Source of the DNA: an uncultured Eubacteriales bacterium
Lineage (GTDB): Bacteria; Bacillota; Clostridia; Lachnospirales; JAISER01
Length of the DNA stretch: 64,000 nucleotides
Direction of reading: 5' to 3'
Assembly: GCA_964545475.1 (NCBI GenBank)
Contig: CAZJGG010000002.1
Span: 4,892-68,891, forward strand
The translations under genes and the position numbers were made by a program. This document shows, in pieces, positions 1 through 15,797 of this stretch. The stretch's first letter is position 1, and each line of letters opens with the position of its first letter. Under the pieces are notes generated by a model, which saw only the letters and a program-made list of their open reading frames with translations, ran no database searches and was not told the origin of the DNA.

Positions 1-16
1 AGGAGGATAACAAAAG

Positions 17-1393
17 ATGAGTGATTTTGCATTTCCGACGAATATAAAGCAAATTGGTTCAATCGGCGAAGGTTTCAGAGTTTACATTGAAGATTATGCT
101 TGTTCATATTTACAACAATATGCGGAAGCGGGGGGATACGAAGAAAGACTTGCATTTTTGGTAGGGCGTTACATGGTTATAGACGGGCAAACCGTTTTGT
201 TTATTAGTGGGCTTGTTCAAGGGTTACATACATATGCTGAAAAAGATATTTTGACTTTTTCAGACAAATCATGGCAACACGCTTCAAAAGAAATCAATAA
301 ATATTTTAAAGGGTTAGATATTGTAGGGTGGATGCAATCCCAGCCGGGGTATGGCACTCACCTAAATGCAAGTTACGAAAAAATGCACAAAAAGATGTTT
401 CCGAATTTTAACCAGGTTTTGTTTGTTATAGACCCGGTTGAAAAGATAAATGCATTTTACATATTTGACGAAAAGAACGACGAACTTAAAGAATCATTGG
501 GTTATTTCATTTATTATGATAAAAACAAGGGTATGCATGAGTATATGCTTGAAAACAAAATAGTAAAGATGAAAATGCGTCCGCTGCCGGAAATTCCTGA
601 GGCTGCTAAGCCGATTATGGAAGAGCAGGATGATGACGATGATGATGAGAGGGAGTATAAAGGTCCGGTTATCCGCCGGAAAAGGGCATTTAATGATAAA
701 ATTAAAAAATTACCAATTGCTCAAAAAAGAATGGTAAATCTTTTAACAACTTTAAGCGCTTCTTTGTTTATAATATGCTTGCTAACAGTAACAGGGCTTG
801 CAAGAAACAATGGGCGAATAACTTCTTTAGAACAACAGCTTACGGAATTAAACACCGCTTACAGAAATCTTATGGTCGAGGCTAATAAATCTAACACGGC
901 AACGGTTTTTGCCAGCCAGGATTCGGCTCTAAATTCCATAGATATGTCTGCCGAGCCGGAAAGCCCTCAGGTAATTGTTGAAAACGGAAACGACCTTTTA
1001 AATGAAAACGCTCTTTCAGGCAATAACGCAGTTTCAAGCGATAACACCGTTATAAACGAAAATACTCTTGCGGTTTTAGAAAATAACTTAACTCCTGAAA
1101 GGGTTTTGCAAATGATGGCGGAGGAGGCAAGGGCAACGCCTGAACCTGCCACGACTCCGGCTCCAGTTATAACGCCGCCGCCGCCGGAGCCTACACCGGA
1201 ACCGCCAAAAACTACAACAAGGGAAATACCGAAAAAATATACGGTTAAATCCGGAGACAGCCTTATCGGAATAAGCGTTAAGTTTTACGGCGATAAAAGT
1301 ATGGTGGAGGAGATAATGCTTTTGAACAACCTAGAAGATGCCGACAAAATATATTTCGGTAAAGTTTTGTTATTACCTCAGTTAGCGGAATAA
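17..1393 (+). CDS. Single-pass membrane protein: N-terminal degenerate MPN/JAB-like domain, acidic linker, TM helix, Pro-rich linker, C-terminal LysM domain
   Basis: AGGAGG at 1-6 precedes the ATG at 17. The N-terminus has GWMQSQPGYG, resembling the JAMM GWYHSHPGFG with both His replaced by Gln. A poly-D run, hydrophobic segment LLTTLSASLFIICLLTVTGL and PAPVITPPPPEPTPEPP linker follow. The C-terminus YTVKSGDSLIGISVKFYGD...LLLPQ is LysM-like. Confidence 0.8.
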   Translation: MSDFAFPTNIKQIGSIGEGFRVYIEDYACSYLQQYAEAGGYEERLAFLVGRYMVIDGQTVLFISGLVQGLHTYAEKDILTFSDKSWQHASKEINKYFKGLDIVGWMQSQPGYGTHLNASYEKMHKKMFPNFNQVLFVIDPVEKINAFYIFDEKNDELKESLGYFIYYDKNKGMHEYMLENKIVKMKMRPLPEIPEAAKPIMEEQDDDDDDEREYKGPVIRRKRAFNDKIKKLPIAQKRMVNLLTTLSASLFIICLLTVTGLARNNGRITSLEQQLTELNTAYRNLMVEANKSNTATVFASQDSALNSIDMSAEPESPQVIVENGNDLLNENALSGNNAVSSDNTVINENTLAVLENNLTPERVLQMMAEEARATPEPATTPAPVITPPPPEPTPEPPKTTTREIPKKYTVKSGDSLIGISVKFYGDKSMVEEIMLLNNLEDADKIYFGKVLLLPQLAE

Positions 1394-1415
1394 CCACATG
1401 TGGAGATGATAATAT

Positions 1416-2087
1416 ATGACCGATGAAAGACATTATGAAACAATTGAAATGATTGCCGCAACGTTAGCCCATGAAGTTAAAAATCCTTTGTCTTTAATTC
1501 AGGCAAATATAGATTATATTGAACTGTGTGACGTTGAACACAAGTACTCCAACAATTACAGAATAATAAAGCAGGAACTTAAACGCACCAATGAAATGCT
1601 TGGGGGATTTATCGAACTTATAAATTTAGCTTATAATTATGACGAGGAAATGGCAATTTACGATATTGTTATGCAGGTTGCGGAAAATTACAAGCAGATA
1701 ACAAACAAAATAATACTTTTCACTGTTTCATGCCGGAACAAAAACTTGTATATTAGAGGCAACGCTCAGCTTTTTACAATGGCTCTTTCAAATATTATCA
1801 AAAATTCAATTGAAGCTATAGAGGACAGTGGTGAAATAAAAATTAATATTGACACAGATGGTTCGGTTGCAATAATAAAAATTGAGGATACCGGCAGAGG
1901 GCTTTCCCCGGAGGTTATTGAGAAAATTAAAAACTCCCAAAGCTACTCTACGAAAACTTTCGGAAGCGGTATAGGAATAAACATTTGTAAACAAATATTA
2001 ACCCAACATAACGGAACATATTCCATCGAAAACTGCGAAAACGGAGGGTGTGTTGTTACTATAGATGTTCCTCTTGCAAACGGATAG
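1416..2087 (+). CDS. Small cytoplasmic histidine kinase (HisKA + HATPase_c only, no sensor or TM domain)
   Basis: H-box AHEVKNPL, N-box SNIIKNSIEA, G1 EDTGRGL and G2 GSGIGINICKQI are all present. The protein is only 223 aa with no hydrophobic segments. Confidence 0.85.
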   Translation: MTDERHYETIEMIAATLAHEVKNPLSLIQANIDYIELCDVEHKYSNNYRIIKQELKRTNEMLGGFIELINLAYNYDEEMAIYDIVMQVAENYKQITNKIILFTVSCRNKNLYIRGNAQLFTMALSNIIKNSIEAIEDSGEIKINIDTDGSVAIIKIEDTGRGLSPEVIEKIKNSQSYSTKTFGSGIGINICKQILTQHNGTYSIENCENGGCVVTIDVPLANG

Positions 2088-2097
2088 TTTACAAAAT

Positions 2098-2141
2098 AAA
2101 AAACCGAAAAGTGATTTTAAAAGTCGCTTTCCGGTTTTTTT
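2098..2141 (+). terminator. Rho-independent terminator after the histidine kinase gene
   Basis: Stem aaaaccgaaaagtga / tcgctttccggtttt is followed by a T-run ending near 2141. Confidence 0.7.
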
Positions 2142-2172
2142 ATTGTTAATTTTTGTACATATAAAAATTATA

Positions 2173-2201
2173 TTGACAGATTATACATTTATACTTATAA
2201 T
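2173..2201 (+). promoter_or_regulatory. Consensus sigma-A type promoter for the GntR gene
   Basis: TTGACA (2173-2178), an exact 17-nt spacer, then TATAAT (2196-2201). The perfect palindrome ATTACATGTAAT at 2212-2223 lies just downstream. Confidence 0.65.
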
Positions 2202-2251
2202 GTTATATAATATTACATGTAATTTGCACAAAAAGTATGGAGTGGTGTAAT

Positions 2252-2986
2252 ATGATCCAACGTAACTCATCAAACGCCATGTATTTACAGCTTGTAGAGC
2301 TGATAAAACGGGAGATTTTGCAAAGAAAGTACATAGAGGATTCATGTATTGGAAAACATACTGAAATTGCAGAAAGATGGAAGGTTAGCTTAATAACCGT
2401 TAGAAAAGCTCTTAAAATACTGGAAGAAGAAGGCTATATTACAATTAAGCAAGGTAAAGGCACTTTTGTTAAGCCGGGCATATTAAAAAACGAGCTTAAC
2501 AGACTTACCGGCACCACTCAAAACATTCTTAAAACAAACATAAAGCCGGATGTTAAAGTACTTAGTATTGAAAAAATAACAACCCCTGAAAGTTTTTCCC
2601 CGGAAATTAAAAGAGAAATGGGCGAAAAATGTATTTTAGCGGAAAGAATCCACTCTGTGGATGGAACGGTTATAAGCTTTGCACGCCTTTACCTGCCTAT
2701 AGAATATGGAGAGCAATTGAGTAAGGAAGAATTGGAAAATTTTACGGTTTACCAACTGTATCAAAACAAGCTTGGTGTACAGCTAGGCAAAGGACGACAA
2801 AACATTAGAGCCGTACCATCAAATGTTATACTTGCCAATATGTTTGGCGTGGCGCAGGGTACGCCGTTGTTGTTTATTGAAAGAGAGGCGTACAGCAAAC
2901 AAAACCAGCTTATAGAAGTTATGGAGTTATATTACGACCATACCCAGTATACCTTTAGGGTTGAATTGGACTTAAGCGCTGAATAG
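2252..2986 (+). CDS. GntR/HutC-family transcriptional regulator (wHTH + UTRA effector domain)
   Basis: N-terminal wHTH (HTEIAERWKVSLITVRKALKILEEEGYITIKQGKGTFV) with a UTRA-like C-terminal half. GGAGTGG 6-7 nt upstream favours the ATG at 2252 over the ORF-track start at 2237. Confidence 0.85.
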   Translation: MIQRNSSNAMYLQLVELIKREILQRKYIEDSCIGKHTEIAERWKVSLITVRKALKILEEEGYITIKQGKGTFVKPGILKNELNRLTGTTQNILKTNIKPDVKVLSIEKITTPESFSPEIKREMGEKCILAERIHSVDGTVISFARLYLPIEYGEQLSKEELENFTVYQLYQNKLGVQLGKGRQNIRAVPSNVILANMFGVAQGTPLLFIEREAYSKQNQLIEVMELYYDHTQYTFRVELDLSAE

Positions 2987-3049
2987 AAATTAAAAATGGT
3001 AACCCAAGCATACGTGTATTGGATTATCTTTTTTAAAATAAAAAATAGT

Positions 3050-3223
3050 CTGCTATACTCCTTAACCATATAAAATAGTACTGAGTTGCGAGCAAATTTT
3101 GCTTGTGGCAAGGAAGAGACGACGCCGTGTGCTAGCGGCACACAAGAAGTTGATGACGCAGTTCACAAGTAAAATTCGCCGCAAGGCAGTGCTATTTTAT
3201 GTGGTTAGGAGTATATATAGCAG
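3050..3223 (+). repeat. Long palindromic intergenic repeat, family A copy 1 (MITE/REP-like, about 174 nt)
   Basis: Terminal inverted repeats ctgctatactccttaacca...tggttaggagtatatatagcag. The whole element folds as an imperfect hairpin around gtgtgc-tagcg-gcacac. A near-identical inverted copy lies at 42171-42335. Confidence 0.85.
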
Positions 3224-3252
3224 CTAAACCATATTATATGAGGAGTGTGTTT

Positions 3253-4827
3253 ATGAAGAAGTTAGTTAGTTTAGTAATGGCAGGAGCACTTTGCCTTTCC
3301 GTTTTAACAGCATGTGGCTCAAACGGCGAAAAGCCTGCCCAACAGCAACAACAAGAGCAAAGCGGCGAAACCAAAGGAGAGGCAAATGAGGCAGAAAGCA
3401 CAAAAGTTAAAGATACTTTTATTGTTGCTACAAAAAGAGAACCTAAATCTTTAGTGCCTCATGGTTCAAACGATACAGGCACAAGCTTTGTTACAGCTCT
3501 TATTTACGATTCTTTACTTTCATTTGATAAAGACATGAACGTTATACCGTGTCTTGCAACAGATTGGGAGAAAAAAGATGACGTTACTTATGTTTTTAAC
3601 CTTAGAGATGATGTTTATTTCCATAACGGAGAAAAACTTACAGCAGAAGACGTTAAATTTACATTTGAAAAAGCTGCTAAATCCCCGGCTACAATTGCTC
3701 AGCTTGGCATGATTGACCCGGAGAAAACAAACGTTGTAGACGAAAATACAATTGAAATTGTACTTAGCAAGCCTTTTCCTCCAATTCTTAACTCTCTTGC
3801 CCTTGAAATTGCAAGCATTGTTAACAAAAAAGCCTTTGAAGAAGGCAACTTCGAGGAAAGCCCAATCGGCACAGGTCCTTTTACATTTAAACAATGGGTT
3901 TCCGGCGACAGACTTGAACTTAACGGAAACAAAGAATATTGGGGCGAAAAAGCGGCAATTAACACACTTGTTTTACGCCTTATTCCTGAAGCAACAACAA
4001 GAGCTATTGAAATTGAAACTGGTGGCGTAGACATGGCTTTAGGTTTATCCGATAGTGATACAATTAACTTGAGAGAAAATCCTAATGTAAACATGTATAC
4101 AGAAAACATTTTAAATACTTCATACATGTCATTTAACTGCTCTAAAGCACCTTTTGACAACGCTAAAGTGCGTGCGGCTATAACTTACGCTATAGACGCA
4201 AAAGCTGTTGCAGATGCGGCATCCTTTGGCTTGGCTGAACAATCGTTCTCTCCAATTGCGCCGGGAGTGTTCGGTTACTACAATCCGGGTCAAGTTTACG
4301 AATATAACCCAGAAAAAGCAAAAGAACTTTTGGCAGAAGCAGGCTTCCCAGACGGCTTTAAAACTACTTTAACTCAATCCGGCGACGACGCACAAGCAGA
4401 AATGATTCAAAACATGCTTGGTAAAGTTGGTATATCAGTTGAAATTAACTCTGTAGACTTTGCAAATTGGCTTGATGCTTTAGTTAACGGCAAACAAGAA
4501 ATGTATCTTGGCGGCTGGACAGTTTCTACAGCAGATGCTGACGGCGGCTTAAACGAACCATTTAATTCTAAAAACCACGGCGACGGCGGCAACCGTTCTT
4601 TCTATACAAACACTGAACTTGACGAAATTTTAGAAGCTGCCGCAGTTGAGCTTGATACTGAAAAACGTCTTGAACTTTACAAAGAAGCTCAAACAATTAT
4701 TGCTAACGATGCAGTTTATGTTAACCTAATGATTGGCCGTACTAATGTAGCAACTAAAAAAGAGGTTACAAACCTTGAGCTTATGCCAACACAAAACATT
4801 AAGCTTAACCTTATCAGATTTGAATAA
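3253..4827 (+). CDS. ABC transporter substrate-binding lipoprotein, family 5 (peptide/nickel/opine type)
   Basis: AGGAG at 3241 precedes the ATG at 3253. Signal peptide plus lipobox MKKLVSLVMAGALCLSVLTAC-GS. SBP_bac_5-like body (LLSFDKDMNVIPCLATDWE, GTGPFTF). Confidence 0.9.
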   Translation: MKKLVSLVMAGALCLSVLTACGSNGEKPAQQQQQEQSGETKGEANEAESTKVKDTFIVATKREPKSLVPHGSNDTGTSFVTALIYDSLLSFDKDMNVIPCLATDWEKKDDVTYVFNLRDDVYFHNGEKLTAEDVKFTFEKAAKSPATIAQLGMIDPEKTNVVDENTIEIVLSKPFPPILNSLALEIASIVNKKAFEEGNFEESPIGTGPFTFKQWVSGDRLELNGNKEYWGEKAAINTLVLRLIPEATTRAIEIETGGVDMALGLSDSDTINLRENPNVNMYTENILNTSYMSFNCSKAPFDNAKVRAAITYAIDAKAVADAASFGLAEQSFSPIAPGVFGYYNPGQVYEYNPEKAKELLAEAGFPDGFKTTLTQSGDDAQAEMIQNMLGKVGISVEINSVDFANWLDALVNGKQEMYLGGWTVSTADADGGLNEPFNSKNHGDGGNRSFYTNTELDEILEAAAVELDTEKRLELYKEAQTIIANDAVYVNLMIGRTNVATKKEVTNLELMPTQNIKLNLIRFE

Positions 4828-4838
4828 TTTTTAAAACC

Positions 4839-4903
4839 GTAGGGAACGACCCTCGTGTCATTCCGTTTTTCATAAGTGGAGTAGTCGTTCCCTACTTTTT
4901 TTT
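4839..4903 (+). terminator. Intra-operon hairpin and partial terminator between the SBP and permease genes (GTAGGGAACG-stem element, copy E1)
   Basis: Perfect 12-bp stem gtagggaacgac (4839-4850) / gtcgttccctac (4884-4895) with a 33-nt loop, followed by T8. Confidence 0.7.
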
Positions 4904-4954
4904 GAATTAGTTATGAAATGAACATATTTGCAACACTTTGACTAGGGTGATTAG

Positions 4955-5926
4955 ATGATAAAATATATAGCAAAAAGGTTGCTTATGATGATTCCTGTTA
5001 TTATAGGCGTAACCTTTATAGTATTTACTATTTTGCACTTTACCCCGGGGGATCCGGCTCGTACAATTTTAGGTGAGCTTGCCACAAAAGAAGAAGTGGA
5101 CGCCCTTAGGGAGCAGCTTGGACTTAACAAAGGTTTTTTTGAGCAATATTTTAATTACATAAAAAATATAGTAATGCATTTGGATTTCGGCAACTCGTTT
5201 ATAAACGGAAAGGATGTTTCAAAAGAGCTTTTTTCCCGTTTCCCAACTACGTTTTTGTTGGCATCGTTAAGCATGATTTTGGCTGCGGCTATAGGCATAC
5301 CATCCGGAATTATTTCAGCCACAAAACAGTATTCCATTTTTGACAACTTCGTTACAGTGTTTTCCCTTGTAAGCTTAGCTATGCCAAGTTTTTGGCTTGG
5401 TCTTATGCTTATAATAGCTTTTTGTTTAAAACTTCATATTTTTCCGGCTTCCGGTTTTTATGGGCCGCAATATTGGGTTTTGCCTGTTATTACGGTAGGC
5501 ACTGGTTGTGCTGCCGGTATAATGAGAACTACTCGTTCCAGTATGTTGGAAGTTGTTAGGCAGGACTACATACGAACCGCCAGAAGTAAAGGTCAAAAGG
5601 AAAATATAATAGTAAGAAAACACGCTTTAAGAAACGCTATTATTCCTGTTATTACAATTATGGGCTTACAGTTTGGACACCAATTGGCAGGAACGGTTGT
5701 TGTAGAATCTATTTTCGCTATACCGGGCTTAGGTAAGCTTTTGGTAGATTCCATTGCGGCAAAAGATTTGCCGATGATTCAAAGCGGCGTTTTATTTTTA
5801 GCCGTTGTTTTCAGTTTGGTAAACTTATTTGTAGACGTTATGTATGCATTTATTGATCCAAGAATACGTTCTCTTTACGTCAGAATAAAGCCAAAACAGA
5901 TAAAGGCGGGTGAGACAAATGCATAA
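4955..5926 (+). CDS. ABC transporter permease (DppB/OppB-like)
   Basis: Multi-TM protein with an N-terminus typical of BPD_transp_1 Opp/Dpp permeases (MIKYIAKRLLMMIPVIIGVTFIVF) and an EAA-like loop (YIRTARSKG). Confidence 0.9.
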   Translation: MIKYIAKRLLMMIPVIIGVTFIVFTILHFTPGDPARTILGELATKEEVDALREQLGLNKGFFEQYFNYIKNIVMHLDFGNSFINGKDVSKELFSRFPTTFLLASLSMILAAAIGIPSGIISATKQYSIFDNFVTVFSLVSLAMPSFWLGLMLIIAFCLKLHIFPASGFYGPQYWVLPVITVGTGCAAGIMRTTRSSMLEVVRQDYIRTARSKGQKENIIVRKHALRNAIIPVITIMGLQFGHQLAGTVVVESIFAIPGLGKLLVDSIAAKDLPMIQSGVLFLAVVFSLVNLFVDVMYAFIDPRIRSLYVRIKPKQIKAGETNA

Positions 5927-6785
5927 TACAGAAACTTTCAAAAAGAAAAGCCTTTGGGCAGATGCATGGAAAAGACTTAGAAAAAACCGCATGGCTATGA
6001 TTGGTCTTGGCATAATTACAATGTTTATTATTTTGGCTATTTTTGCAGATCAAATCGCCCCATATGGCTACGACGACCAAGACTTAAACAGACGATTTAT
6101 GTTTCCTAATAAAGATTTTTGGTTTGGAACGGATATGTTTGGGCGCTGTATTTTAAGCCGTATTATTTACGGCGCTAGAATATCTTTACAAGTAGGCTTT
6201 GTAGCTGTTACCATATCCGGTTGTATCGGAGGAACTTTAGGCGCAATTGCTGGATACTATGGTAATACTGTAGACAATGTAATAATGCGCTTTTTAGATA
6301 TAATTATGGCAATACCAAGTGTTTTACTTGCGATTATTATTGCAACCTCTCTTGGTTCGGGTCTTGGCAACCTTATGCTTGCTGTTGGTTTGGCTTCCGT
6401 GCCTAGTTATGCTCGTCTTGTACGTGCTTCCATACTTACAATAAAAGAACAGGAATTTGTAGAAGCCGCACGCCTTGTAGGATGTTCAGATGCAAGAATA
6501 ATTTTCAGACATATGATACCAAATGTTATGGCTCCAATAATCGTACAGGTTACATTAAGCATGGCTTTAGCTATATTAAGCGCATCAACATTAAGCTTTA
6601 TAGGGCTTGGCATAAAGCCGCCTACGCCTGAATGGGGCGCAATGCTTTCCGCAGGGCGTGCTTATATAAGGGATTACTGGCATGTTGTAACTTTCCCGGG
6701 GTTGGCAATAGTTACAGTAATTTTGGCGCTTAACCTTTTGGGTGACGGCTTAAGAGATGCGCTTGATCCAAGAATGAAGCGTTAG
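5919..6785 (+). CDS. ABC transporter permease (DppC/OppC-like)
   Basis: OppC-like N-terminus (WKRLRKNRMAMIGLGII) and EAA loop (EFVEAARLVGCSD). The ATG at 5919 follows AAAGGCGGG; the ORF track's GTG at 5910 is an alternative start. Confidence 0.88.
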   Translation: MHNTETFKKKSLWADAWKRLRKNRMAMIGLGIITMFIILAIFADQIAPYGYDDQDLNRRFMFPNKDFWFGTDMFGRCILSRIIYGARISLQVGFVAVTISGCIGGTLGAIAGYYGNTVDNVIMRFLDIIMAIPSVLLAIIIATSLGSGLGNLMLAVGLASVPSYARLVRASILTIKEQEFVEAARLVGCSDARIIFRHMIPNVMAPIIVQVTLSMALAILSASTLSFIGLGIKPPTPEWGAMLSAGRAYIRDYWHVVTFPGLAIVTVILALNLLGDGLRDALDPRMKR

Positions 6786-6799
6786 GCAGGTGTAGATAA

Positions 6800-7789
6800 A
6801 TGGAAAAAGAACAGAACTTTCTCGAAATAACCAATTTAAAGGTAGAATACCATACAGACGATGTGACTGTTAAAGCCGTAAATGGTGTAGATTTAGTATT
6901 AAATAAAGGCGAAACATTAGGTCTTGTTGGAGAAACCGGGGCAGGGAAAACAACAACAGCTTTAAGTATGTTGTCATTACTTCCAGACCCACAGGGTAAA
7001 GTAACCAGCGGAAAAATCATGTTTGAGGGTAATAACGTTTTAGATATGTCTCTGACAGAGCTTAGAAAGCTTCGTGGCAACAAAATGTCTATGATATTCC
7101 AAGACCCAATGACTTCTTTAAACCCTATTATGACGGTAGGCGACCAAATTGCCGAAGTTGTAAAGCTTCACCAAAACGTTTCATTGGCTGAGGCTAACCG
7201 CAGAGCTATGGAAATGTTAGAGACAGTAGGAATTCCGGCAGAGCGTTTTTATGAATATCCTCATCAGTTTTCCGGCGGAATGAAGCAGAGAGTTGTTATA
7301 GCTATTGCTCTTGCTTGTAACCCGGGTTTGCTTATTGCAGACGAGCCTACAACGGCTCTTGACGTAACAATACAAGCCCAGGTTTTAGAGCTTATGAACA
7401 GGCTTAAGCAAGAATTTAATACCGCTCTTTTACTCATAACCCACGACCTTGGCATTGTTGCGGAAATGTGCGATAGAGTAATGATTATGTATTGCGGAGA
7501 AATTGTTGAATCCGGGACGATAAACGATGTATTTGAAAAACCCGGGCATCCATATACTTTAGGGCTTTTTGGTTCAATACCGGATATTGAAACTAATGTA
7601 ACAAGGCTTAAACCTATTATGGGGCAAGTGCCTGATCCATCAAATTTACCCCCTGGATGTAAATTTGCAAACCGTTGCGGCGATTGCACGGATAGATGCA
7701 TAAAAGAAGAGCCGGAAGCTTATGAAGTTTCGCCGGGGCATAAAGTGAAATGCTTTTTGGCGCAAAACGCCGGAGGTGACGTAAAATGA
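6800..7789 (+). CDS. ABC transporter ATP-binding protein (DppD/OppD-like)
   Basis: Walker A GETGAGKT, signature FSGGMKQR, Walker B LLIADEPT and a C-terminal oligopeptide-type Cys motif [14 protein letters not shown]. Confidence 0.92.
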
Positions 7790-8739
7790 GCCAGCTTGAA
7801 GTTAAAAACCTGAAAAAATACTTTAAAACCCCGAGAGGAACTCTCCATGCGGTAGACGGTATAGACTTTAAAATAGAAAAAGGTCAGACACTTGGCATCG
7901 TTGGGGAGTCCGGCTGTGGTAAATCCACCCTTGGGCGTGTTGTTTTACATTTGCTTGAAAAAACCGAAGGTCAAATATACTTTGAGGGCGAAGATATTTC
8001 TAACATTAATAAAAAACAGCTTAAAGACATACGTAAAGATATGCAAATGATTTTTCAAGACCCTTTCTCTAGCTTAAACCCACGTATGACCGTATCTGAA
8101 ATTATTGCAGAGCCTATGATTGTACATAAGACCATGGAAAACGGGCAGGGGGTTTTAAGAAGAGTTGCGGAGCTTATGGATATTGTAGGCTTAGCAAGAC
8201 GCCTTGAAAACACATACCCTCACGAGCTGGACGGCGGAAGGAGACAACGTATCGGAGTAGCAAGAGCATTGGCTTTAAACCCTAAGTTTATTGTTTGCGA
8301 CGAGCCAGTGTCCGCTTTGGACGTATCAATCCAAGCCCAAATACTGAATCTTATGATGGACTTGCAGGACGAACTTGGTCTTACTTATATTTTTATTACC
8401 CACGATTTATCAGTAGTTAAGCATATTTCCAATGAAATTGGCGTTATGTACCTTGGCAAAATGGTTGAAAAAACCACATCTGATAAGTTATTTAAGAAAC
8501 AGTATCACCCTTATACAAAAGCACTTTTATCGGCCATTCCGTCGGTAAAATTAGATGCTAGACGTGAAAGAATAATACTTAAAGGGGAAATTTCATCTCC
8601 AATAAACCCGAAACCGGGTTGCCGCTTTGCTCCTCGCTGTTTATATGCGCAGAACAAATGCTTTAACGATTCCCCAGAATTTAGAATGATTGAAGACGGA
8701 CACCAAGTTGCGTGCCACTTTGCGGAAAAGGTGAACTAA
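7786..8739 (+). CDS. ABC transporter ATP-binding protein (DppF/OppF-like)
   Basis: Walker [10 protein letters not shown], signature-like LDGGRRQR, Walker [13 protein letters not shown] and C-terminal CRFAPRC. There is a 4-nt overlap with the upstream gene. Confidence 0.92.
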
Positions 8740-8745
8740 AGTCTT

Positions 8746-9549
8746 ATGGTATATGATGCTCATGTTCACTTCGGAAACGGAGAAAAAATACGAAATATTA
8801 TAAAAACCAGCGTGTTTTATGATGAATTTCCATGTTATCAAGGTGCGCAGCCAGATAAGATAGATAATTATGACAAGCTATTAAAGCAGAACGGCTTAGC
8901 CGGAGCTACGCTTATGCCTTTTGTTTTTAAAGAAAACGTGCCAAAAGAAGAAAATGCCGAACTTCTCCAATTTTGTGAAAGTAATGAAGGGTTTTACCCG
9001 TTTCTGCTTTTAGACGAAAAAGACGTTAATGCGGCGGAACAGCATAAAAACCAAATATATGGTGTAAAAGAGCACTTCATACAGACAGAAAGTGTTTTAA
9101 CCAATGAAAAAGCCCAAATTTTTGATATTGTAAATAAGTACGGTATAACGTTTGTTATTCACTCAACAGGCGCACAGCGTATTGAGTACGTTTCAAGCAT
9201 TTTAAAGCTGTTTCCCCACATAAAAATACAAATAGCCCACATGGGGCGGGGAAGCATAAACCAGCTGGATTTTATTTTTGAGGTAATGGCGGCTTTTAAG
9301 GGATATGACAATGTTTTTTATGACACTTCTACAATAAGGGATTGCAGAATATTAGAAAAATCCGTTAACTTAATTGGCCCTGAAAGAATTTTGTATGGCT
9401 CTGATTTTCCGTTTTCCATGGAAAACACAGAAGAAGATATAATAGAAAAACAAATAAGCCATGTGCTAAAATCAAAAATATCCGATGACGCAAAAGAACG
9501 TATATTAGGCGGAAATTTTAAAAATTTAATAGCAAAGCGAGATGTTTAA
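8746..9549 (+). CDS. Metal-dependent amidohydrolase-fold (TIM-barrel) hydrolase, amidohydrolase_2-like
   Basis: N-terminal DAHVHF (HxH metal motif), later IAHMGRG and YGSDFPF, as in the amidohydrolase_2 family. Lies in the same operon as the ABC importer. Confidence 0.65.
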   Translation: MVYDAHVHFGNGEKIRNIIKTSVFYDEFPCYQGAQPDKIDNYDKLLKQNGLAGATLMPFVFKENVPKEENAELLQFCESNEGFYPFLLLDEKDVNAAEQHKNQIYGVKEHFIQTESVLTNEKAQIFDIVNKYGITFVIHSTGAQRIEYVSSILKLFPHIKIQIAHMGRGSINQLDFIFEVMAAFKGYDNVFYDTSTIRDCRILEKSVNLIGPERILYGSDFPFSMENTEEDIIEKQISHVLKSKISDDAKERILGGNFKNLIAKRDV

Positions 9550-9551
9550 TT

Positions 9552-10304
9552 TTGAAAGGTATAAAACTTAAAGAAATAACTCACAAGCAATGCAAACCTT
9601 TGCTTAACGAAGATGCTATAGTAGTTTTGCCAATTGGAGGCGGAGTTAAGGAGCACGGCTCACATTTGCCTCTTGGAACAGACTTTTTTGTTACAGATTT
9701 TATAGCAGAAAAAGTTGTGGAGCGCAACGAAGTTTTGCTCTTGCCAACGCTTCCTTACGCATACTTCCCGGCTTTTGTGGATTGGGAAGGCAGCGTTTCC
9801 ATACAAGCAGACAACTTTATTGCTTATGTAAAAGACATAATATTAAGTTTTCAGAAATTCGGCGTAAAAAAGTTTTTAATAATTGACGGCGGTGTATCTA
9901 CTCAACAGCCTCTTATAATACTATCCAGAACTTTGTTTAACGAATATGGCATACATGTAGCGTTAACAAACATTTTAGGATTAGGCAGAGAAGTTGAAAA
10001 AGAAATTTGCCAGCAAAAGCAAGGCGGCCACGGTGACGAAACCGAGACAAGCTGTATGCTTCATATTAATGAAAAATTAGTAAAAATGGAAGAGACCTGC
10101 GAAGAATACACTACACCTGCTCCGGGATGCTCTGTTAACGGTATTTTAAAAGTTTATATGCCCGGTAAAATGGACACGAAAAGCGGAATTAACGGTAACA
10201 GTACCCTTGCCACTAAAGAAAAAGGCGAAAAAGTTTTAAATGCAATGATAGATGATATTTGCAATTTTTTAGACAATTTTCGCAATTTTAGGGGAAATAA
10301 TTAA
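9552..10304 (+). CDS. Creatininase-family amidohydrolase
   Basis: LPIGGGVKEHGSHLPLGTD and GGHGDETETSCML resemble the creatininase-family metal-binding motifs. TTG start 2 nt after the upstream stop. Confidence 0.7.
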   Translation: MKGIKLKEITHKQCKPLLNEDAIVVLPIGGGVKEHGSHLPLGTDFFVTDFIAEKVVERNEVLLLPTLPYAYFPAFVDWEGSVSIQADNFIAYVKDIILSFQKFGVKKFLIIDGGVSTQQPLIILSRTLFNEYGIHVALTNILGLGREVEKEICQQKQGGHGDETETSCMLHINEKLVKMEETCEEYTTPAPGCSVNGILKVYMPGKMDTKSGINGNSTLATKEKGEKVLNAMIDDICNFLDNFRNFRGNN

Positions 10305-11533
10305 TGACTAATAAAAATTACTTGGACTATTATGCTTATAAATCCCAAAATGGGGAGCAAATTAAGTTTGTCAGCGGCGATGGAGCGGCTTTAACAGATG
10401 AAAGAGGCTGTACTTATATAGATTTAGATGAAATTATTAATATTTTAGGGCAAAATAATCAAGAATTTAATAATCGGATTATGAGCGTATTGACCGGGCC
10501 GGATATGGCGAAAGGGGGCGTCCACCCTCAAAAGGAAGCTCTTATTCAAAGCTTATTAGAAATAACAGAAGACAAGTTTAATAAAATGTTTTTTGCTTCC
10601 AGCGCCAGCGAATCTGTGGAATCAGCAATAAAACTGGCGAAGAAAGCTACCGGAAGAACAGAAATATTATGTTTTTGGAACAGCGTTCACGGTCGTACTT
10701 ATGTTAGTTCGTCTGTTTCTGGCAAAAAAAACAGAAAAAACGGTTATGGTCCGTTAGCAGCAGGGGTTGTGTACAGTCCATACCCAAAATGTATATGCTG
10801 TATACATAATCTTTGCTCGGAAAACTGCGGTTTTAAATGTATTGAGCATTTGGACAGAATTGTAGACAATGAATCTGCTGATGATATTGCGGCATTAATT
10901 ATTGAACCCATACAAACATTTGAAGGAAACTGCCCACCGGAGGGTTATTTAAAAAGGTTATTTGAATGGGCTAAGGCAAAAGACATTTTGGTTATCTTTG
11001 ACGAAGTGCAAAGCGGCATAGGCCGCACAGGGAAAATGTTTCGGTATATGCATGAAGAAATTACGCCGGATATTCTTTTGACGGGTAAAGGCCTTGGCAA
11101 CGGCATACATATATCTGCTCTTTTGTTTAACGAAGGGATTGTGCCTGAAAAGGATTTAAGAATACTTGCCGGAGGCAGCGGAGATAACGAAGTTTCGTGC
11201 GCCGCAGCGGCGGCAGTGCTATCTTATGTTAAAAAGCCAGAGACTATTGAGAGAATAGCAAAAATCGGGCAAATGCTTAAGACTGCTGTTAATGGAGTTA
11301 AAGAAAAATACGGCTTTATTGAACAAGTGCGTGGCGACGGTTTGATGATTGCCATTGAATTTACAACAGAAGAAATTTGCAATAAAATACTTCAAGTTTT
11401 AATAGATAATAAATTTATAATTATGGCTGTTAACAAAACACTTATTTTTAAACCACCGTTGGTTTTGACAGAAGTACAGGCGCAAAGTTTTATTAGCACT
11501 TTGTTAAAATCTTTTGATGAAGTTTCTTTGTAA
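10304..11533 (+). CDS. Class-III (PLP-dependent) aminotransferase
   Basis: DEVQSGIGRTGKMF, then PDILLTGKGLGNG carrying the candidate PLP lysine. Start overlaps the upstream stop (TAATG). Confidence 0.85.
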   Translation: MTNKNYLDYYAYKSQNGEQIKFVSGDGAALTDERGCTYIDLDEIINILGQNNQEFNNRIMSVLTGPDMAKGGVHPQKEALIQSLLEITEDKFNKMFFASSASESVESAIKLAKKATGRTEILCFWNSVHGRTYVSSSVSGKKNRKNGYGPLAAGVVYSPYPKCICCIHNLCSENCGFKCIEHLDRIVDNESADDIAALIIEPIQTFEGNCPPEGYLKRLFEWAKAKDILVIFDEVQSGIGRTGKMFRYMHEEITPDILLTGKGLGNGIHISALLFNEGIVPEKDLRILAGGSGDNEVSCAAAAAVLSYVKKPETIERIAKIGQMLKTAVNGVKEKYGFIEQVRGDGLMIAIEFTTEEICNKILQVLIDNKFIIMAVNKTLIFKPPLVLTEVQAQSFISTLLKSFDEVSL

Positions 11534-11550
11534 AGCTATAATACAAAAAT

Positions 11551-11585
11551 AAGGGTGTGTCTTTAAAGACGCACCCTTATTTTTG
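11551..11585 (+). terminator. Rho-independent terminator ending the ABC/amidohydrolase/aminotransferase operon
   Basis: Stem aagggtgtgtcttt / aaagacgcaccctt followed by ATTTTTG. Confidence 0.8.
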
Positions 11586-11597
11586 CCATAATTCTTT

Positions 11598-11740
11598 TGC
11601 ACAATGCCATTTGGAACTCGGAACGTTCCCTACAAATCTATTTTAAAAATGACATAATGGAACATAAGAATGCAATATTGTAGGGAGCGCATTGTATGCG
11701 TTCCGCAGGCTGACAACAGTCCTTGTCGGAAGCCTGAGGC
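11598..11740. repeat. Composite palindromic intergenic element (copy E2; shares a GTAGGGAACG arm with 4839-4895)
   Basis: gaacgttccctacaa (11621-11635) pairs with ttgtagggagcgc (11678-11690). A second hairpin caggctgacaa...ttgtcggaagcctg lies at about 11705-11735. Sits between convergent operons. Confidence 0.5.
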
Positions 11741-11746
11741 CATTTT

Positions 11747-13117
11747 TTATTTAAACATATTCTCGTATAATTCTATTTTTTTATAAACCTGTGATTTTTC
11801 CGGTCCGCCGTCAACGCCTCTTGCGTCAACGCAAGCTTCAATGGAAATTCTGTCGTAAACAGTTTCATCAAAGACTTCAGAAGCGGCTTTAAGCTCTTCT
11901 AAAGTAAGCTGTTCAAGGCTTTTTTTGTTTTCAATGCAGTATAAAACAAGTTTGCCGATAACTTCGTGGGCATCTCTAAATGGGACGCCTTTTTTTACAA
12001 GCCAGTCTGCTGCATCTGTAGCGTTAACAAAGCCGTCGCCGCAAGCTTTGCGCATATTTGGCTTGTTTACGCTCATTGTGTCAAGCATTCCGCAAAATAC
12101 AGGCAAACACATTTTAACAGTGTCTACTGCATCAAAAACCGATTCTTTATCCTCTTGCATGTCTTTGTTATATGCAAGGGGTAACCCCTTCATAACGGTT
12201 AAAAGCCCAAATAACGAGCCGTAAACACGCCCTGTTTTACCACGAATAAGCTCTGCCATATCCGGGTTCTTTTTTTGGGGCATAATGCTTGAGCCTGTAG
12301 AATAAGAGTCGTCAAGGTCAATAAATTTAAATTCGTAGCTGCTCCATAAAATAATTTCTTCACAAAAGCGGCTTAAATGCATCATAAGTATGGACAAAAC
12401 GCTTAAAAGTTCTATGCAAAAATCTCTGTCAGAAACGGCATCCATAGAGTTTCTCGTAATGTTTTCAAAGCCTAAAGCTTCGGCAACAAAATTACGGTCT
12501 ATATTATATGTATTTCCGGCAAGAGCTCCTGCGCCCAAAGGCATATAATCTGTTCTTTTTGCCGCATCAGAAAGCCTTTCAGAGTCTCTTAAAAGCATTT
12601 CAAAATAAGCAAGTAAGTGGTGAGCAAAATTAATAGGCTGAGCCCGTTGCAAATGTGTATACCCGGGTAATACAGTGTCTACATTTTCCTTTGCAATACG
12701 TAATATTACATGCTGCAATTTAGCAATCATTTCCTTTATTTCGGAAATTTCTGCTTTTACAAACATACGCATGTCTAGGGCAACTTGGTCGTTGCGGCTT
12801 CTGCCTGTATGAAGCATTTTGCCGGCCTCACCGATTCTGCTGATTAAGATAGTTTCGATATTCATATGAATATCTTCGGCTTTTTCGTCAAAGGTAAGTT
12901 TGCCGTTTTTATAATCATCTAAAATTTCATTTAAAGTTTTTTCTATAAGCTTTGCGCTTTCAAGGGGAATAATTTCTTGCTTGCCAAGCATTTTTACATG
13001 AGCGATACTGCCTAATATATCATATTCCGCAAGCCTTTTGTCAAATGTAACGGAAGAATGGAAATGATCCGTCAATTCGTCTGTTGCTTTAACAAATCTA
13101 CCGCCCCAAAGCTTCAT
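11747..13117 (-). CDS. argH: Argininosuccinate lyase
   Basis: MKLWGGRF N-terminus, fumarate-lyase signature GSSIMPQKKNPD, 456 aa. Confidence 0.95.
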   Translation of the reverse strand: MKLWGGRFVKATDELTDHFHSSVTFDKRLAEYDILGSIAHVKMLGKQEIIPLESAKLIEKTLNEILDDYKNGKLTFDEKAEDIHMNIETILISRIGEAGKMLHTGRSRNDQVALDMRMFVKAEISEIKEMIAKLQHVILRIAKENVDTVLPGYTHLQRAQPINFAHHLLAYFEMLLRDSERLSDAAKRTDYMPLGAGALAGNTYNIDRNFVAEALGFENITRNSMDAVSDRDFCIELLSVLSILMMHLSRFCEEIILWSSYEFKFIDLDDSYSTGSSIMPQKKNPDMAELIRGKTGRVYGSLFGLLTVMKGLPLAYNKDMQEDKESVFDAVDTVKMCLPVFCGMLDTMSVNKPNMRKACGDGFVNATDAADWLVKKGVPFRDAHEVIGKLVLYCIENKKSLEQLTLEELKAASEVFDETVYDRISIEACVDARGVDGGPEKSQVYKKIELYENMFK

Positions 13118-14349
13118 TATTTTTGCTCCTTTATGCTCATTTCCATAAGAGCTCTGTGTTTAAGAGATAAGCCGAAAAGGTTAATAAAGCCCTCTGCATC
13201 GTAATGGTTAAATAATTCCCCAGTTGTAAAGCTTGCCAATGATTCGTTATATAAAGAATAGATTGAAGAGCTTCCGGCGGAAATTATATTGCCTTTATAA
13301 AGCTTAAGTTTAACAGTACCAGTTACATTTTCTTGTGTTTTGTCAATAAATGCAGACAATGCTTCTCTTAACGGTGTAAACCATTCTCCGGAATAAATAA
13401 GCTCTGCAAGTTTTGTTCCAACAATTTCTTTAAAAGATGTTGTTTGTTTATCTAAACATAAATATTCAAGCTCCCTGTGAGCATAATATAAAATTGAGCC
13501 ACCTGGTGTTTCATAAACACCACGAGATTTCATACCAACAACACGGTTTTCAACTAAATCTGTAATACCAATGCCGTTAGCTCCGCCAACTTCGTTTAAT
13601 TTATCCATTAAATCTACAGGATTTATAACTTCTCCGTTATACTTAACAGGAATGCCTTTTTCAAATGTAAGTTCAATGTATGTAGGTTTGTCCGGTGCTT
13701 TTTCTGGTGTAACAGAAAGCTGTAAAAGTTTTTCAAAGTTTGGTTCTGTGTCCGGCTTTTCAAGCTCAAGCCCTTCATGGCTTAAATGCCATAAGTTTCT
13801 GTCACGGCTGTAGCTATCTTCTTTTTGCATAGGCACTTCAATGCCTCTTTTTTCCAAATATGCAATTTCTTCTTCACGAGAGGAAATATCCCAAGTACGC
13901 CAAGGCGCAATTATTTTAAGCTGGGGCGCAATTGCCTTAATAGCAAGCTCAAAACGGATTTGGTCATTTCCTTTACCCGTTGCTCCGTGGCAAATAGCCG
14001 TTGCGTTTTCTTTAAGTGCAATATCAACCAATACTTTACCAATCAGAGGTCGGGCAATAGCAGTTCCGAGTAAATACTTGTCTTCATAAACAGTACCGCT
14101 TTTTAACATTGGATAAATATAATCCGTAAGTAATTCCTCTCGCACATCTAAAATATAACATTTAGAAGCGCCAGTTTTTTTAGCTTTTTCTTCAAGGCCG
14201 TCTGTTTCAGAACCCTGACCTACGTCTACGCAAACGCATATAATTTCGCAATTTGGATATTGCTCTTTAAGCCAAGGAATGATTACGGTTGTGTCCAAGC
14301 CGCCTGAGTAGGCTAAAACAATTTTCTCATTATCTGTTATTTTTCCCAT
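13117..14349 (-). CDS. argG: Argininosuccinate synthase
   Basis: [11 protein letters not shown]-loop and [13 protein letters not shown]. The stop overlaps the argH start by 1 nt (TAATG). Confidence 0.95.
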
Positions 14350-14618
14350 TTCTTATTCCTCCTGATTTTGGTTGTAGCTAATAATTATACATGATTAGTT
14401 GAAATTAGCAAGTGGTTAAGATAGAAAAAATACAAGTGGCAAATTAGACATTTACGTCAATATTATTTTTAGAATACATATAATGTAAAGATTTTTGTTA
14501 ACATCAACTATTTTGTTGTTTTATGATAATTTTTTTTGTTGAAAGTTAACAATTTACTATGCTGAACTGTATAGATAACACACATGTGCGGAATGTATAA
14601 AATAATGATGAAACCCAC

Positions 14619-14647
14619 TTGCATATTTATAAATAAAAATGTATAAT
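14619..14647 (+). promoter_or_regulatory. Candidate sigma-A promoter for argC, with an A/T-rich ARG-box-like spacer
   Basis: TTGCAT (14619-14624), a 17-nt spacer, then TATAAT (14642-14647), 25 nt upstream of the argC ATG. GGGAGG RBS at 14662. Confidence 0.5.
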
Positions 14648-14672
14648 ATGAAAAAAATTTCGGGAGGTTAGC

Positions 14673-15722
14673 ATGATAAATGTAGGAATAATCGGTGCGA
14701 CAGGCTATGGGGGCGGCGAACTGGTACGAATTTTGTCAGCTCACCCCATGGTTAAAATCAAGCACATAACAAGCCAAAGCTACATAAACAAGCCGTTTTA
14801 CGAGACATTTGGGAACTTTTTAAACGTTAATGACATTGTGTGCGAAGAAGAAAATCTTGAAAAAATGGCGGAAGACTGTGATTGCATTTTTATTGCCTTA
14901 CCACATGGCGTTGCAAGCCGAAAAGTTAACGCTGAAATACTTAACAAAGTTAAAATTATTGATTTTGGGGCGGATTTTCGGCTTAAAGACGTAGATATTT
15001 ACGAAAAGTGGTACGGCGTAGAACATGGCGCAAAAGAGCTTTTGGTCGAGGCTGTTTACGGTCTTAGTGAGCTTAACCGGGATAATATTAAAAATGCCAG
15101 ATTAATCGCCAATCCTGGGTGCTACACAACATGCTCTATTTTATGCCTTCACCCTCTTCTTGCGGAAGGGCTTATAGAGAAAGACGGCATTATTATTGAT
15201 GCAAAGTCCGGGGTTTCCGGTGCTGGGCGAGGTCTTGACTTAGGAGTACATTTTAACGAGGTTAACGAATCCATTAAACCGTATAAAGTTGCCGGGCACA
15301 GACACACGCCGGAAATTGAAGAGCAACTTTCATATGCCTTAAACGACGGAAATAGTATTACACTTAGCTTTACTCCGCATTTAATCCCTATGAACAGAGG
15401 GGTTATGACCACATGTTATGCCAGACCGAAAAAAGGGGTTAATTACGCCCAAATTAAACAAGCCTTTGAAAACTTCTACAAAGATGAACTTTTTATAAGA
15501 ATGACACGACAAGGAACATTTCCGGAAACGAAATGGGTTAAAGCATCAAATTTTTGCGATATTGGCTTTACTCTTGATGAACGTACAAACAACTTAGTAA
15601 TTGTTGGCGCTCTTGACAACCTTGTTAAAGGTGCGGCAGGCCAGGCAGTGCAAAACATGAACATTACATTTTGCTTAAACGAAAAAACAGGTTTAAATTA
15701 TGTTCCTATTTTCCCTTGCTAG
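14673..15722 (+). CDS. argC: N-acetyl-gamma-glutamyl-phosphate reductase
   Basis: GATGYGGGELVRIL NAD-binding N-terminus and active-site ANPGCYTT. Confidence 0.95.
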   Translation: MINVGIIGATGYGGGELVRILSAHPMVKIKHITSQSYINKPFYETFGNFLNVNDIVCEEENLEKMAEDCDCIFIALPHGVASRKVNAEILNKVKIIDFGADFRLKDVDIYEKWYGVEHGAKELLVEAVYGLSELNRDNIKNARLIANPGCYTTCSILCLHPLLAEGLIEKDGIIIDAKSGVSGAGRGLDLGVHFNEVNESIKPYKVAGHRHTPEIEEQLSYALNDGNSITLSFTPHLIPMNRGVMTTCYARPKKGVNYAQIKQAFENFYKDELFIRMTRQGTFPETKWVKASNFCDIGFTLDERTNNLVIVGALDNLVKGAAGQAVQNMNITFCLNEKTGLNYVPIFPC

Positions 15723-15797
15723 AGCTGTTTTTGCAAATAGCTATAATGTCCGTATTTGTAGAGATAACACACGTTATAAAAAAATCGGAGGCTAAAG

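Follow-up and report, generated by a model that had tools for sequence, protein, structure and literature searches.

The creatininase homologue MftE is a peptidase, and the alpha-amino lactam that it releases is subsequently deaminated (PMC10885120; PMC9679996). Here we describe a nine-gene operon that encodes a further member of the creatininase family, designated Crn, together with an ATP-binding cassette (ABC) importer, a GntR-type regulator and two additional enzymes, the metal hydrolase AH2 and the pyridoxal phosphate (PLP) enzyme AT3. The operon is located on contig CAZJGG010000002.1 of an uncultured Eubacteriales bacterium (GCA_964545475.1), within a stretch of 64,000 nucleotides (positions 4,892 to 68,891 of the contig) that was analysed as a whole and is referred to as the window; it is also present in other anaerobes. 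To our knowledge, MftE is the only peptidase known within the creatininase family. The ectoine genes doeA, doeB and doeD of Halomonas elongata are among the other systems suited for comparison.

Operons that combine a regulator, an importer and enzymes for an unassigned substrate are common; the locus is a familiar type of system with an undescribed combination of enzymes. A preceding annotation based on the letters of the window (the sequence-only reading) knew of no characterised pathway with this set of genes, and our literature search likewise found no paper on the combination. We propose that the operon serves the substrate-specific uptake and breakdown of a small, chemically modified peptide or peptide-like amide, an assignment that we regard as evenly balanced between being right and being wrong. 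The nature of the substrate and the chemical steps described below are those that we infer.

Architecture of the operon

Open reading frame (ORF) calls together with Pfam and NCBIfam searches place nine genes, all on the plus strand, within positions 2173-11585 of the window. The features are as follows, SBP denoting the substrate-binding protein.

2173-2201, plus strand: predicted promoter-like element TTGACA-17-TATAAT upstream of gntR (12 of 12 consensus matches, the best of the region)
2252-2986 (alternative start 2237), plus strand: GntR regulator of the HutC subfamily, winged helix-turn-helix (wHTH) and UTRA effector domain (PF00392 47 bits, PF07702 83 bits)
3050-3223, no strand assigned: palindromic repeat element in the gntR-SBP spacer (inverted arms 3063-3099 and 3171-3207)
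3253-4827, plus strand: SBP_bac_5 lipoprotein of the DppA/GsiB/HbpA branch (PF00496 324 bits; lipobox LTAC)
4839-4903, plus strand: hairpin followed by T8 in the SBP-permease spacer (12-bp outer stem; dG -24.4 kcal/mol, z -4.7)
4955-5926, plus strand: ABC permease of the DppB/OppB type (PF00528 and PF19300)
5910-6785, plus strand: ABC permease of the DppC/OppC type (PF00528 and PF12911 OppC_N)
6800-7789, plus strand: ABC ATPase of the DppD/OppD type (PF00005 and PF08352 oligo_HPY)
7786-8739, plus strand: ABC ATPase of the DppF/OppF type (PF00005 and PF08352 oligo_HPY)
8746-9549, plus strand: AH2, TIM-barrel metal hydrolase, Pfam Amidohydro_2 (PF04909 69.5 bits, cut-off 26.4)
9552-10304, plus strand: Crn, creatininase family, TTG start (PF02633 151.3 bits, cut-off 31.3)
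10304-11533, plus strand: AT3, class-III fold-type-I PLP enzyme (PF00202 238 bits, cut-off 30.5)
11544-11585, no strand assigned: terminator common to the operon and the convergent argH (19-bp stem, 21-nt arms 95% complementary; dG -28.3 kcal/mol, z -9.9; T-run)

All genes listed by the sequence-only reading are found at the same coordinates and on the same strand; its count of ten is reduced to nine, both by its own list and by the sequence. Its start of gntR at 2252 is likelier than the one at 2237, with a GGAG located 5 nt ahead of the ATG at 2252. From the first permease gene onwards, the junctions between successive genes are a 17-nt overlap, 14 nt, a 4-nt overlap, 6 nt, 2 nt and a 1-nt overlap. 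The last three values correspond to the ATPase-AH2, AH2-Crn and Crn-AT3 junctions, respectively, in agreement with the tight coupling that had been claimed for the three enzyme genes. Two spacers are longer, namely 266 nt between gntR and the SBP gene and 127 nt between the SBP gene and the first permease gene. Each contains a structured element, the palindromic repeat of about 174 nt taking up most of the gntR-SBP spacer, and neither holds an extra ORF of at least 25 amino acids with a plausible role. An Rfam scan of positions 1-16000 yielded no riboswitch or leader, every match being far below the gathering score. A hairpin behind the gene of a binding protein is a usual means of lifting its mRNA above that of the downstream genes, and the hairpin at 4839-4903 is, as judged from its sequence, a putative partial terminator or mRNA stabiliser.

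Because one promoter-like site and one strong terminator enclose genes of the same strand that overlap or are separated by gaps of 2-14 nt, the two structured spacers excepted, the locus is read as a single operon. Promoter and terminator appear to frame a nine-gene unit, whose co-transcription is suggested by this layout.

Conservation and sister loci

For comparison, 10 genome loci and 80 metagenome loci were fetched and the window proteins were mapped onto them. Loci are considered assessable if their Crn is at least 47% identical to that of the window (range 47-65%) and at least 1.5 kb are available on each side, resulting in 16 loci from other genomes. Dpp/Opp-type ABC genes are found beside Crn in 15 of the 16 loci, and AH2, AT3 and GntR in 9 of 16 each. 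Two more spirochaete loci with ABC genes, AH2 and Crn were recovered by tblastn, having been missed by the simple ORF caller. All nine gene types are present in four loci from metagenomes or metagenome-assembled genomes, in the order of the window in L015 and L020 and with gntR as the last gene in L003 and L023; L017 contains the AH2-Crn-AT3 part, and AT3 is located directly behind Crn in 13 clostridial-type loci. The cluster is a conserved unit.

Other layouts are also present among the sister loci. A second clostridial layout consists of Crn-AT3-GntR with an SBP only 23-24% identical and without AH2; additional genes in this layout encode an M18 aminopeptidase (L018, L019, L022 and L073) and an S9-like alpha/beta hydrolase located before the SBP gene (L018, L019 and L073). 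L016 harbors an MBL-fold hydrolase behind AT3, and L025 is arranged as M18, Crn, PepC-like peptidase and SBP. Taken by gene type, the loci devoid of AH2 contain M18 (5 loci), the S9-like hydrolase (3 clostridial-type loci) or the PepC-like peptidase. Six spirochaete-type loci have the order SBP-permeases-AH2-Crn, followed by a PLP enzyme resembling threonine aldolase/GntG, together with a convergent gene for an S9-like hydrolase. L008 and L029 show the order GntR-Crn-AH2-SBP. The amidohydrolase is an optional module that is missing from about half of the sister loci. Crn and a PLP enzyme of fold type I form the stable core and, together with a peptide-type importer, are constant; the extra hydrolases vary and are mostly recognisable peptidases.

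Carriers with a name include members of the Eubacteriales, Defluviitaleaceae, Desulfatiglandales, Treponemataceae and Candidatus Fervidifonticultor. Since these represent several phyla, the module has moved between phyla. A Roseburia hominis genome also has an AH2 orthologue on record (XCP84736.1). More than 120 relatives of Crn at about 60% identity occur in data from gut, fermenters, termites and sediment. Species representatives rarely have it: among 400 sampled genomes of the phylum, a Crn orthologue is found in two, both without the cluster.

Gene fusions provide a further line of evidence. A protein of 627 amino acids (P0301) fuses a creatininase domain of the same clade to a Beta_elim_lyase domain. 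In other fusions the creatininase domain is joined to an MBL-fold hydrolase (one protein), to an acetamidase/formamidase (one protein) or to a second creatininase domain in tandem (two proteins); the fusion proteins are P0301, P0295, P0306, P0284 and P0292. As the Beta_elim_lyase and MBL fusions repeat partners seen in the gene neighborhood, they independently support a joint action of Crn with the neighboring PLP enzyme and with a second hydrolase.

Three observations on other members of the family are added here. The Crn orthologue of genome G359 (L014, L098:9846-10592; 58% identity) contains one in-frame TAG, lies beside genes for MarR, an ABC exporter, a lyxose isomerase and PfkB, and is possibly a decaying copy. 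A distant branch (34-35% identity; L053, L063 and L065) has a conserved layout of its own, in which a Dpp-type ATPase gene is followed by genes for an alpha/beta hydrolase, Crn and an FAD_binding_2 oxidoreductase, making up another uncharacterised module. On contig C52 of the source genome itself (C52:19408-20316; L099:7408-8316, minus strand) there is another gene of the creatininase family, with 27-29% identity to Crn. It directly follows a URO-D-like gene, and a Spo0A-type regulator is encoded about 1 kb away, a context unrelated to the operon.

The three enzymes

Crn reaches no NCBIfam equivalog. Scores remain below the cut-off for creatinine amidohydrolase (TIGR04448, 77.7 bits versus 235; the ligand His120 is also absent), MftE (TIGR03964, 68.2 bits versus 172; the neighbors are the importer, AH2 and AT3, not mftABCD), IolN (NF041098, a partial match of 56.1 bits versus 245) and ArfB (26 bits versus 180), and these identities are rejected. 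The ESM Atlas returned only generic clusters of the creatininase family. The fold of Crn corresponds to that of creatininase 1q3k (Foldseek E 1e-14, TM 0.76, about 22% identity), and the AlphaFold models of AH2 and Crn (pLDDT 94.7 and 86.7, respectively) confirm the folds only. In the alignment, Crn retains the counterparts of the creatininase residues Glu34, His36, Asp45, His178 and Glu183, Crn residues E34, H35, D44 and E165 being among them. In the Pseudomonas putida structures, the binuclear metal ligands of creatininase are Glu34, His36, Asp45, His120 and Glu183. The NGH motif of creatininase is replaced by an invariant DGG, and His120 aligns with Gly114 of Crn. In a wider set of about 75 homologues, D-G-G-[VI]-S-T marks the close group and N-T-G-[VI]-S-T the distant one; about 70 clade members have DGG or NTG, and the canonical NGH is found in two sequences only. 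By these motifs Crn belongs to a distinct creatininase clade devoid of His120. This branch is populated: the close clade accounts for 46 representative clusters (E <=1e-30) and the wider family for 1315 (E <=1e-10).

AH2 has a PF04909 fold according to its model, which matches PF04909 structures in Foldseek at a TM of about 0.7 and about 15% identity; the matches are decarboxylases, lactonases and hydratases. No NCBIfam equivalog is reached, and the single match, to a lactonase model, is marginal. Seven residues (H6, H8, K108, H110, H139, H165 and D220) are invariant in 27 AH2 sequences, including those from spirochaetes that are only 26-27% identical, and are located in or right after the predicted strands 1, 4, 5, 6 and 8. 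An HxH on strand beta1, a Lys on beta4, a His on beta5, a His on beta6 and an Asp on beta8 make up the pattern typical of binuclear carboxy-lysine amidohydrolases, to which dihydroorotase, hydantoinase and isoaspartyl dipeptidase belong. By the order of its residues and the predicted strands, AH2 may follow this pattern.

AT3 has the invariant PLP lysine K262 as well as D233 and Q236 of the DEVQ motif, and its assignment to fold class III stands. The name aminotransferase is more problematic. Acetylornithine and GABA transaminases bind the alpha-carboxylate of glutamate or 2-oxoglutarate through the Arg of the T-I-R-F-L-P-P-L motif. Aligned to 2ord, all 11 members of the AT3 clade have a non-basic residue (I, V, H, F, Y or L) in place of this Arg, and K or R directly precedes PP. 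Acetylornithine-type models give 241 versus 552 and 234 versus 410 bits. The two specific candidates were rejected: ArgD-type acetylornithine transaminase (TIGR00707) at 234 bits versus 410 and GabT-type GABA transaminase (TIGR00700) at 179 bits versus 507, the Arg before PPL being absent with respect to both. The profile of AT3 scores transaminases and class-III racemases alike, and 'aminotransferase' is therefore the name of a fold, the reaction being unproven. With the canonical carboxylate-binding Arg missing, the reaction that the sequence-only reading had assumed is uncertain, and AT3 may act as a racemase or catalyze another PLP-dependent reaction. We also note that the AT3 clade conserves a Cys motif (C163-x2-C166 ... 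C175-x3-C179; window 10790-10840), which could be a structural metal site; we know of no equivalent motif in bacterial class-III transaminases.

No close orthologue of the three enzymes was found that has already been placed in a pathway: NCBIfam scores are far under the cut-offs, the nearest solved structures are remote (about 15-30% identity), and the names of homologues in public sources are generic.

Importer and regulator

The importer is of the Dpp/Opp type, consisting of an SBP_bac_5 protein, two permeases with OppC_N or BPD_transp_1_N domains, and two ATPases with oligo_HPY tails. Its SBP aligns end to end with DppA, GsiB (YliB) and HbpA. The best match in the PDB is 5u4o (296 bits), followed by HbpA, GsiB and DppA; a literature search on 5U4O returned nothing relevant. 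The nearest solved relatives bind dipeptides or glutathione. Neither specific identity holds, as the SBP scores 243.8 bits versus an equivalog cut-off of 594 for GsiB and 206.4 bits versus 1005 for DppA. Asp408 of DppA is presumably the residue that binds the amino terminus of the dipeptide; the SBP of the window has a Ser at this position, as does GsiB.

The regulator has the domain composition of the HutC subfamily, an N-terminal GntR wHTH and a C-terminal UTRA domain, and reaches no NCBIfam equivalog. In relatives, gntR is located 70 nt (L020) and 61 nt (L016) ahead of the SBP gene, compared with 266 nt in the window. The short spacers of L020 and L016 point to gntR as the first gene of the operon in the ancestral layout; in some relatives (L003 and L023) it is found at the 3' end of the cluster. 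AT-rich palindromes follow the -10 box, and a site of the AGTATATA type is located at 3210, with similar sites in L016 and L020. Their counts are not clearly above chance. The control by GntR that had been proposed earlier is suggested by the position of the gene; repression of the operon by GntR is what this layout would lead one to expect.

Proposed function and alternative explanations

The peptide-like nature of the substrate is suggested by the sister loci, because those without AH2 carry M18, S9-like, PepC or MBL-fold hydrolases. Of the substrate classes named by the sequence-only reading (cyclic amide, lactam or modified peptide), the M18, PepC-like and S9-like genes favor the modified peptide. 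In the mechanism that we propose, the HutC-type GntR protein would repress the operon until its UTRA domain binds an effector, either the substrate or an intermediate. The lipoprotein SBP and the DppBCDF-type permeases and ATPases would bring the compound into the cell, where AH2 may take off or open a group that blocks ordinary peptidases. Crn, the signature enzyme, would then cut an amide bond to give an amino-acid-like product, and AT3 would remove or transfer the amino group of this product, using a non-canonical carboxylate-binding site.

Several observations weigh against this proposal. Crn is devoid of one of the five metal ligands of creatininase, and its chemistry could consequently differ from amide hydrolysis. 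The characterised PF04909 proteins matching the fold of AH2 are decarboxylases, hydratases and lactonases, not amidases, and AH2 is optional among the loci. Three Crn orthologues (L006, G307 and G359) stand alone. The SBPs of many Crn-AT3 loci are only 23-26% identical to the SBP of the window, which implies that the imported compound may differ from locus to locus. In the operator search, sites of the CTTATATAAG type and of the GT-N-TA-N-AC type showed no clear enrichment.

The strongest competitor, unlikely in our estimate, is a route that opens the ring of a small cyclic compound, namely an amide, ureide or amidine resembling, for example, creatinine, hydantoin, dihydropyrimidine, ectoine or an amino-lactam. 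One hydrolase would open the ring, the second would remove an N-acyl or N-carbamoyl group, and AT3 would transaminate the freed amino or diamino acid, making the route a non-homologous counterpart of ectoine degradation by DoeA, DoeB and DoeD. The three enzymes fit such a logic of opening, deacylation and transamination: Crn has the fold of creatininase, which opens a five-membered cyclic amide, AH2 appears to have the ligand pattern of dihydroorotase- and hydantoinase-type enzymes, and an AT3 without the usual carboxylate-binding Arg is expected for a substrate without an alpha-carboxylate. The importer, however, is a peptide-type system whose SBP resembles DppA and GsiB, whereas small cyclic ureides usually enter via NCS1 or amino-acid-type systems. 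Genuine peptidases (M18, PepC-like and S9-like) occur in the sister loci, Crn is devoid of His120 and reaches 77.7 bits where the creatininase model requires 235, and families of the DoeA or DoeB type are missing from the operon.

A recycling route for murein peptides, or for other peptides with D-, gamma- or beta-linked residues or diamino acids, is more doubtful. AH2 and Crn would cut non-alpha or D-linked bonds, and AT3 would either racemise a D-residue or use ornithine, lysine or diaminopimelate, acting at the amine of the side chain. The Dpp-type importer agrees with this assumption, as do the best relatives of AT3, which are omega-transaminases of the acetylornithine, GABA and ornithine type as well as class-III racemases; the alternation of AH2 with an M18 aminopeptidase of the aspartyl/glutamyl type would fit the removal of an iso- or alpha-linked N-terminal acidic residue. 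Against it, the annotated neighbor genes include no LD-carboxypeptidase, L-Ala-D/L-Glu epimerase, NlpC/P60 or MpaA, and the PLP partner in spirochaetes resembles threonine aldolase and is not a diamino-acid enzyme. A housekeeping route would also be commoner than Crn, which is present in 2 of 400 genomes, both without the cluster.

Distinctly improbable is a non-peptide route for a lactone, cyclitol or amino-cyclitol that is derived from a sugar and imported by the Opp-type system. AH2 would serve as a lactonase or hydratase and Crn as an IolN-like C-C hydrolase, and AT3 would carry out the amination or deamination of a keto intermediate. In favor of this route, sugars are ligands of Opp-family binding proteins in Thermotoga, lactonases, hydratases and decarboxylases are the fold neighbors of PF04909, and IolN is a member of the creatininase family. 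The match of Crn to IolN is weak (56 bits; cut-off 245), the SBP most closely resembles binders of peptides and glutathione, and the recurrent accessory genes encode peptidases. Neither the operon nor the examined sister loci contain a gene for a dehydrogenase, kinase, isomerase or aldolase of sugar or cyclitol catabolism. That there is no dedicated pathway at all, the locus being a general di- or tripeptide importer beside three unrelated housekeeping enzymes, is very improbable: the transporter components are generic, reaching no specific equivalog cut-off, and three Crn orthologues occur without any cluster, but translation of the enzyme genes is coupled to that of the last ATPase gene, four other loci have the same gene set and rearranged forms of it occur across phyla, and fusions join Crn to families of its neighbors.

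Returning to the modified peptide or peptide-like amide, a further and speculative step, which we consider doubtful, is that the clade without His120 (KEHGxHLP, [DN][GT]G[VI]ST, GxH[AG]DExETS) represents an undescribed class of intracellular amidases and forms, together with the PLP enzyme to which it is fused in some proteins, a cross-phylum salvage route for one specific class of natural modified peptides. If so, substrates could be, for example, peptides terminating in an amino-lactam or amino-amide, or peptides with a beta-hydroxy residue or another residue of non-proteinogenic type. The substrate of AT3 would in that case have no alpha-carboxylate, and the route would be a catabolic mirror of MftE-MftD.

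The operon is a defined target for enzyme discovery, as it represents a populated and uncharacterised creatininase branch with an altered metal site. In anaerobes of gut, termites, fermenters and sediment this branch is nearly always tied to a peptide-type importer and a PLP enzyme. Knowing the substrate would assign functions to three enzyme subfamilies together and might bring to light a nutrient that is used by a minority of anaerobes, perhaps a peptide derivative resistant to peptidases.

Flanking elements

Between the terminator of the operon and argH, an inverted repeat (CGTTCCCTACAA / TTGTAGGGAGCG) is found at 11624-11689. The core GTAGGGAACG is common to this repeat and to the stem of the hairpin behind the SBP gene (4839-4895), and both may belong to a small repeat family. 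Arginine genes flank the operon at 11747-17027, with argH and argG convergent to it and argC and argJ farther out. They are a separate unit past the terminator. An argH homologue is also located about 6 kb from Crn in L019 (L019:16844-18247), which is probably a coincidence.

Comparison with known systems

With DppABCDF and GsiABCD of E. coli, the importer shares the five-component architecture and the set of domains. It differs in that its SBP is a lipoprotein, that it is encoded in one operon with enzymes and a regulator, and that it falls short of the respective equivalog cut-offs.

Creatinine amidohydrolase of Pseudomonas putida (1q3k, 1j2t) and Crn have the same fold, and five aligned residues are kept. 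The identity is 20-22%, DGG takes the place of NGH, and there are no genes for creatinase or sarcosine metabolism near Crn. IolN, the 3-dehydro-scyllo-inosose hydrolase of the Thermotoga-type inositol pathway, is likewise a creatininase-family member that does not act on creatinine and belongs to a catabolic cluster linked to an ABC importer. In contrast to that cluster, the locus described here has no genes for an inositol dehydrogenase or epimerase, and the accessory genes of its sister loci encode peptidases.

The ectoine genes doeA, doeB and doeD presumably follow a similar plan, with two hydrolytic steps (ring opening and deacylation), a subsequent class-III transaminase, and a regulator of the GntR superfamily. 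The hydrolases there would be of the M24 and AstE/AspA types, as opposed to PF04909 and PF02633 in the operon, the importer is of another type, and the operon has no aldehyde dehydrogenase.

The final comparison concerns mycofactocin synthesis. The operon has no precursor peptide, radical SAM protein or flavoenzyme, it would serve import and catabolism instead of cofactor synthesis, and its amine-handling enzyme is PLP-dependent, whereas MftD deaminates oxidatively. The sequence of steps is alike: a creatininase-family enzyme, MftE, cuts a modified peptide and frees a primary amine, which the next enzyme, the AHDP deaminase MftD, converts into a keto group (PMC10885120; PMC9679996), and in the loci described here Crn is likewise encoded directly before, or fused to, a PLP enzyme that handles amines.

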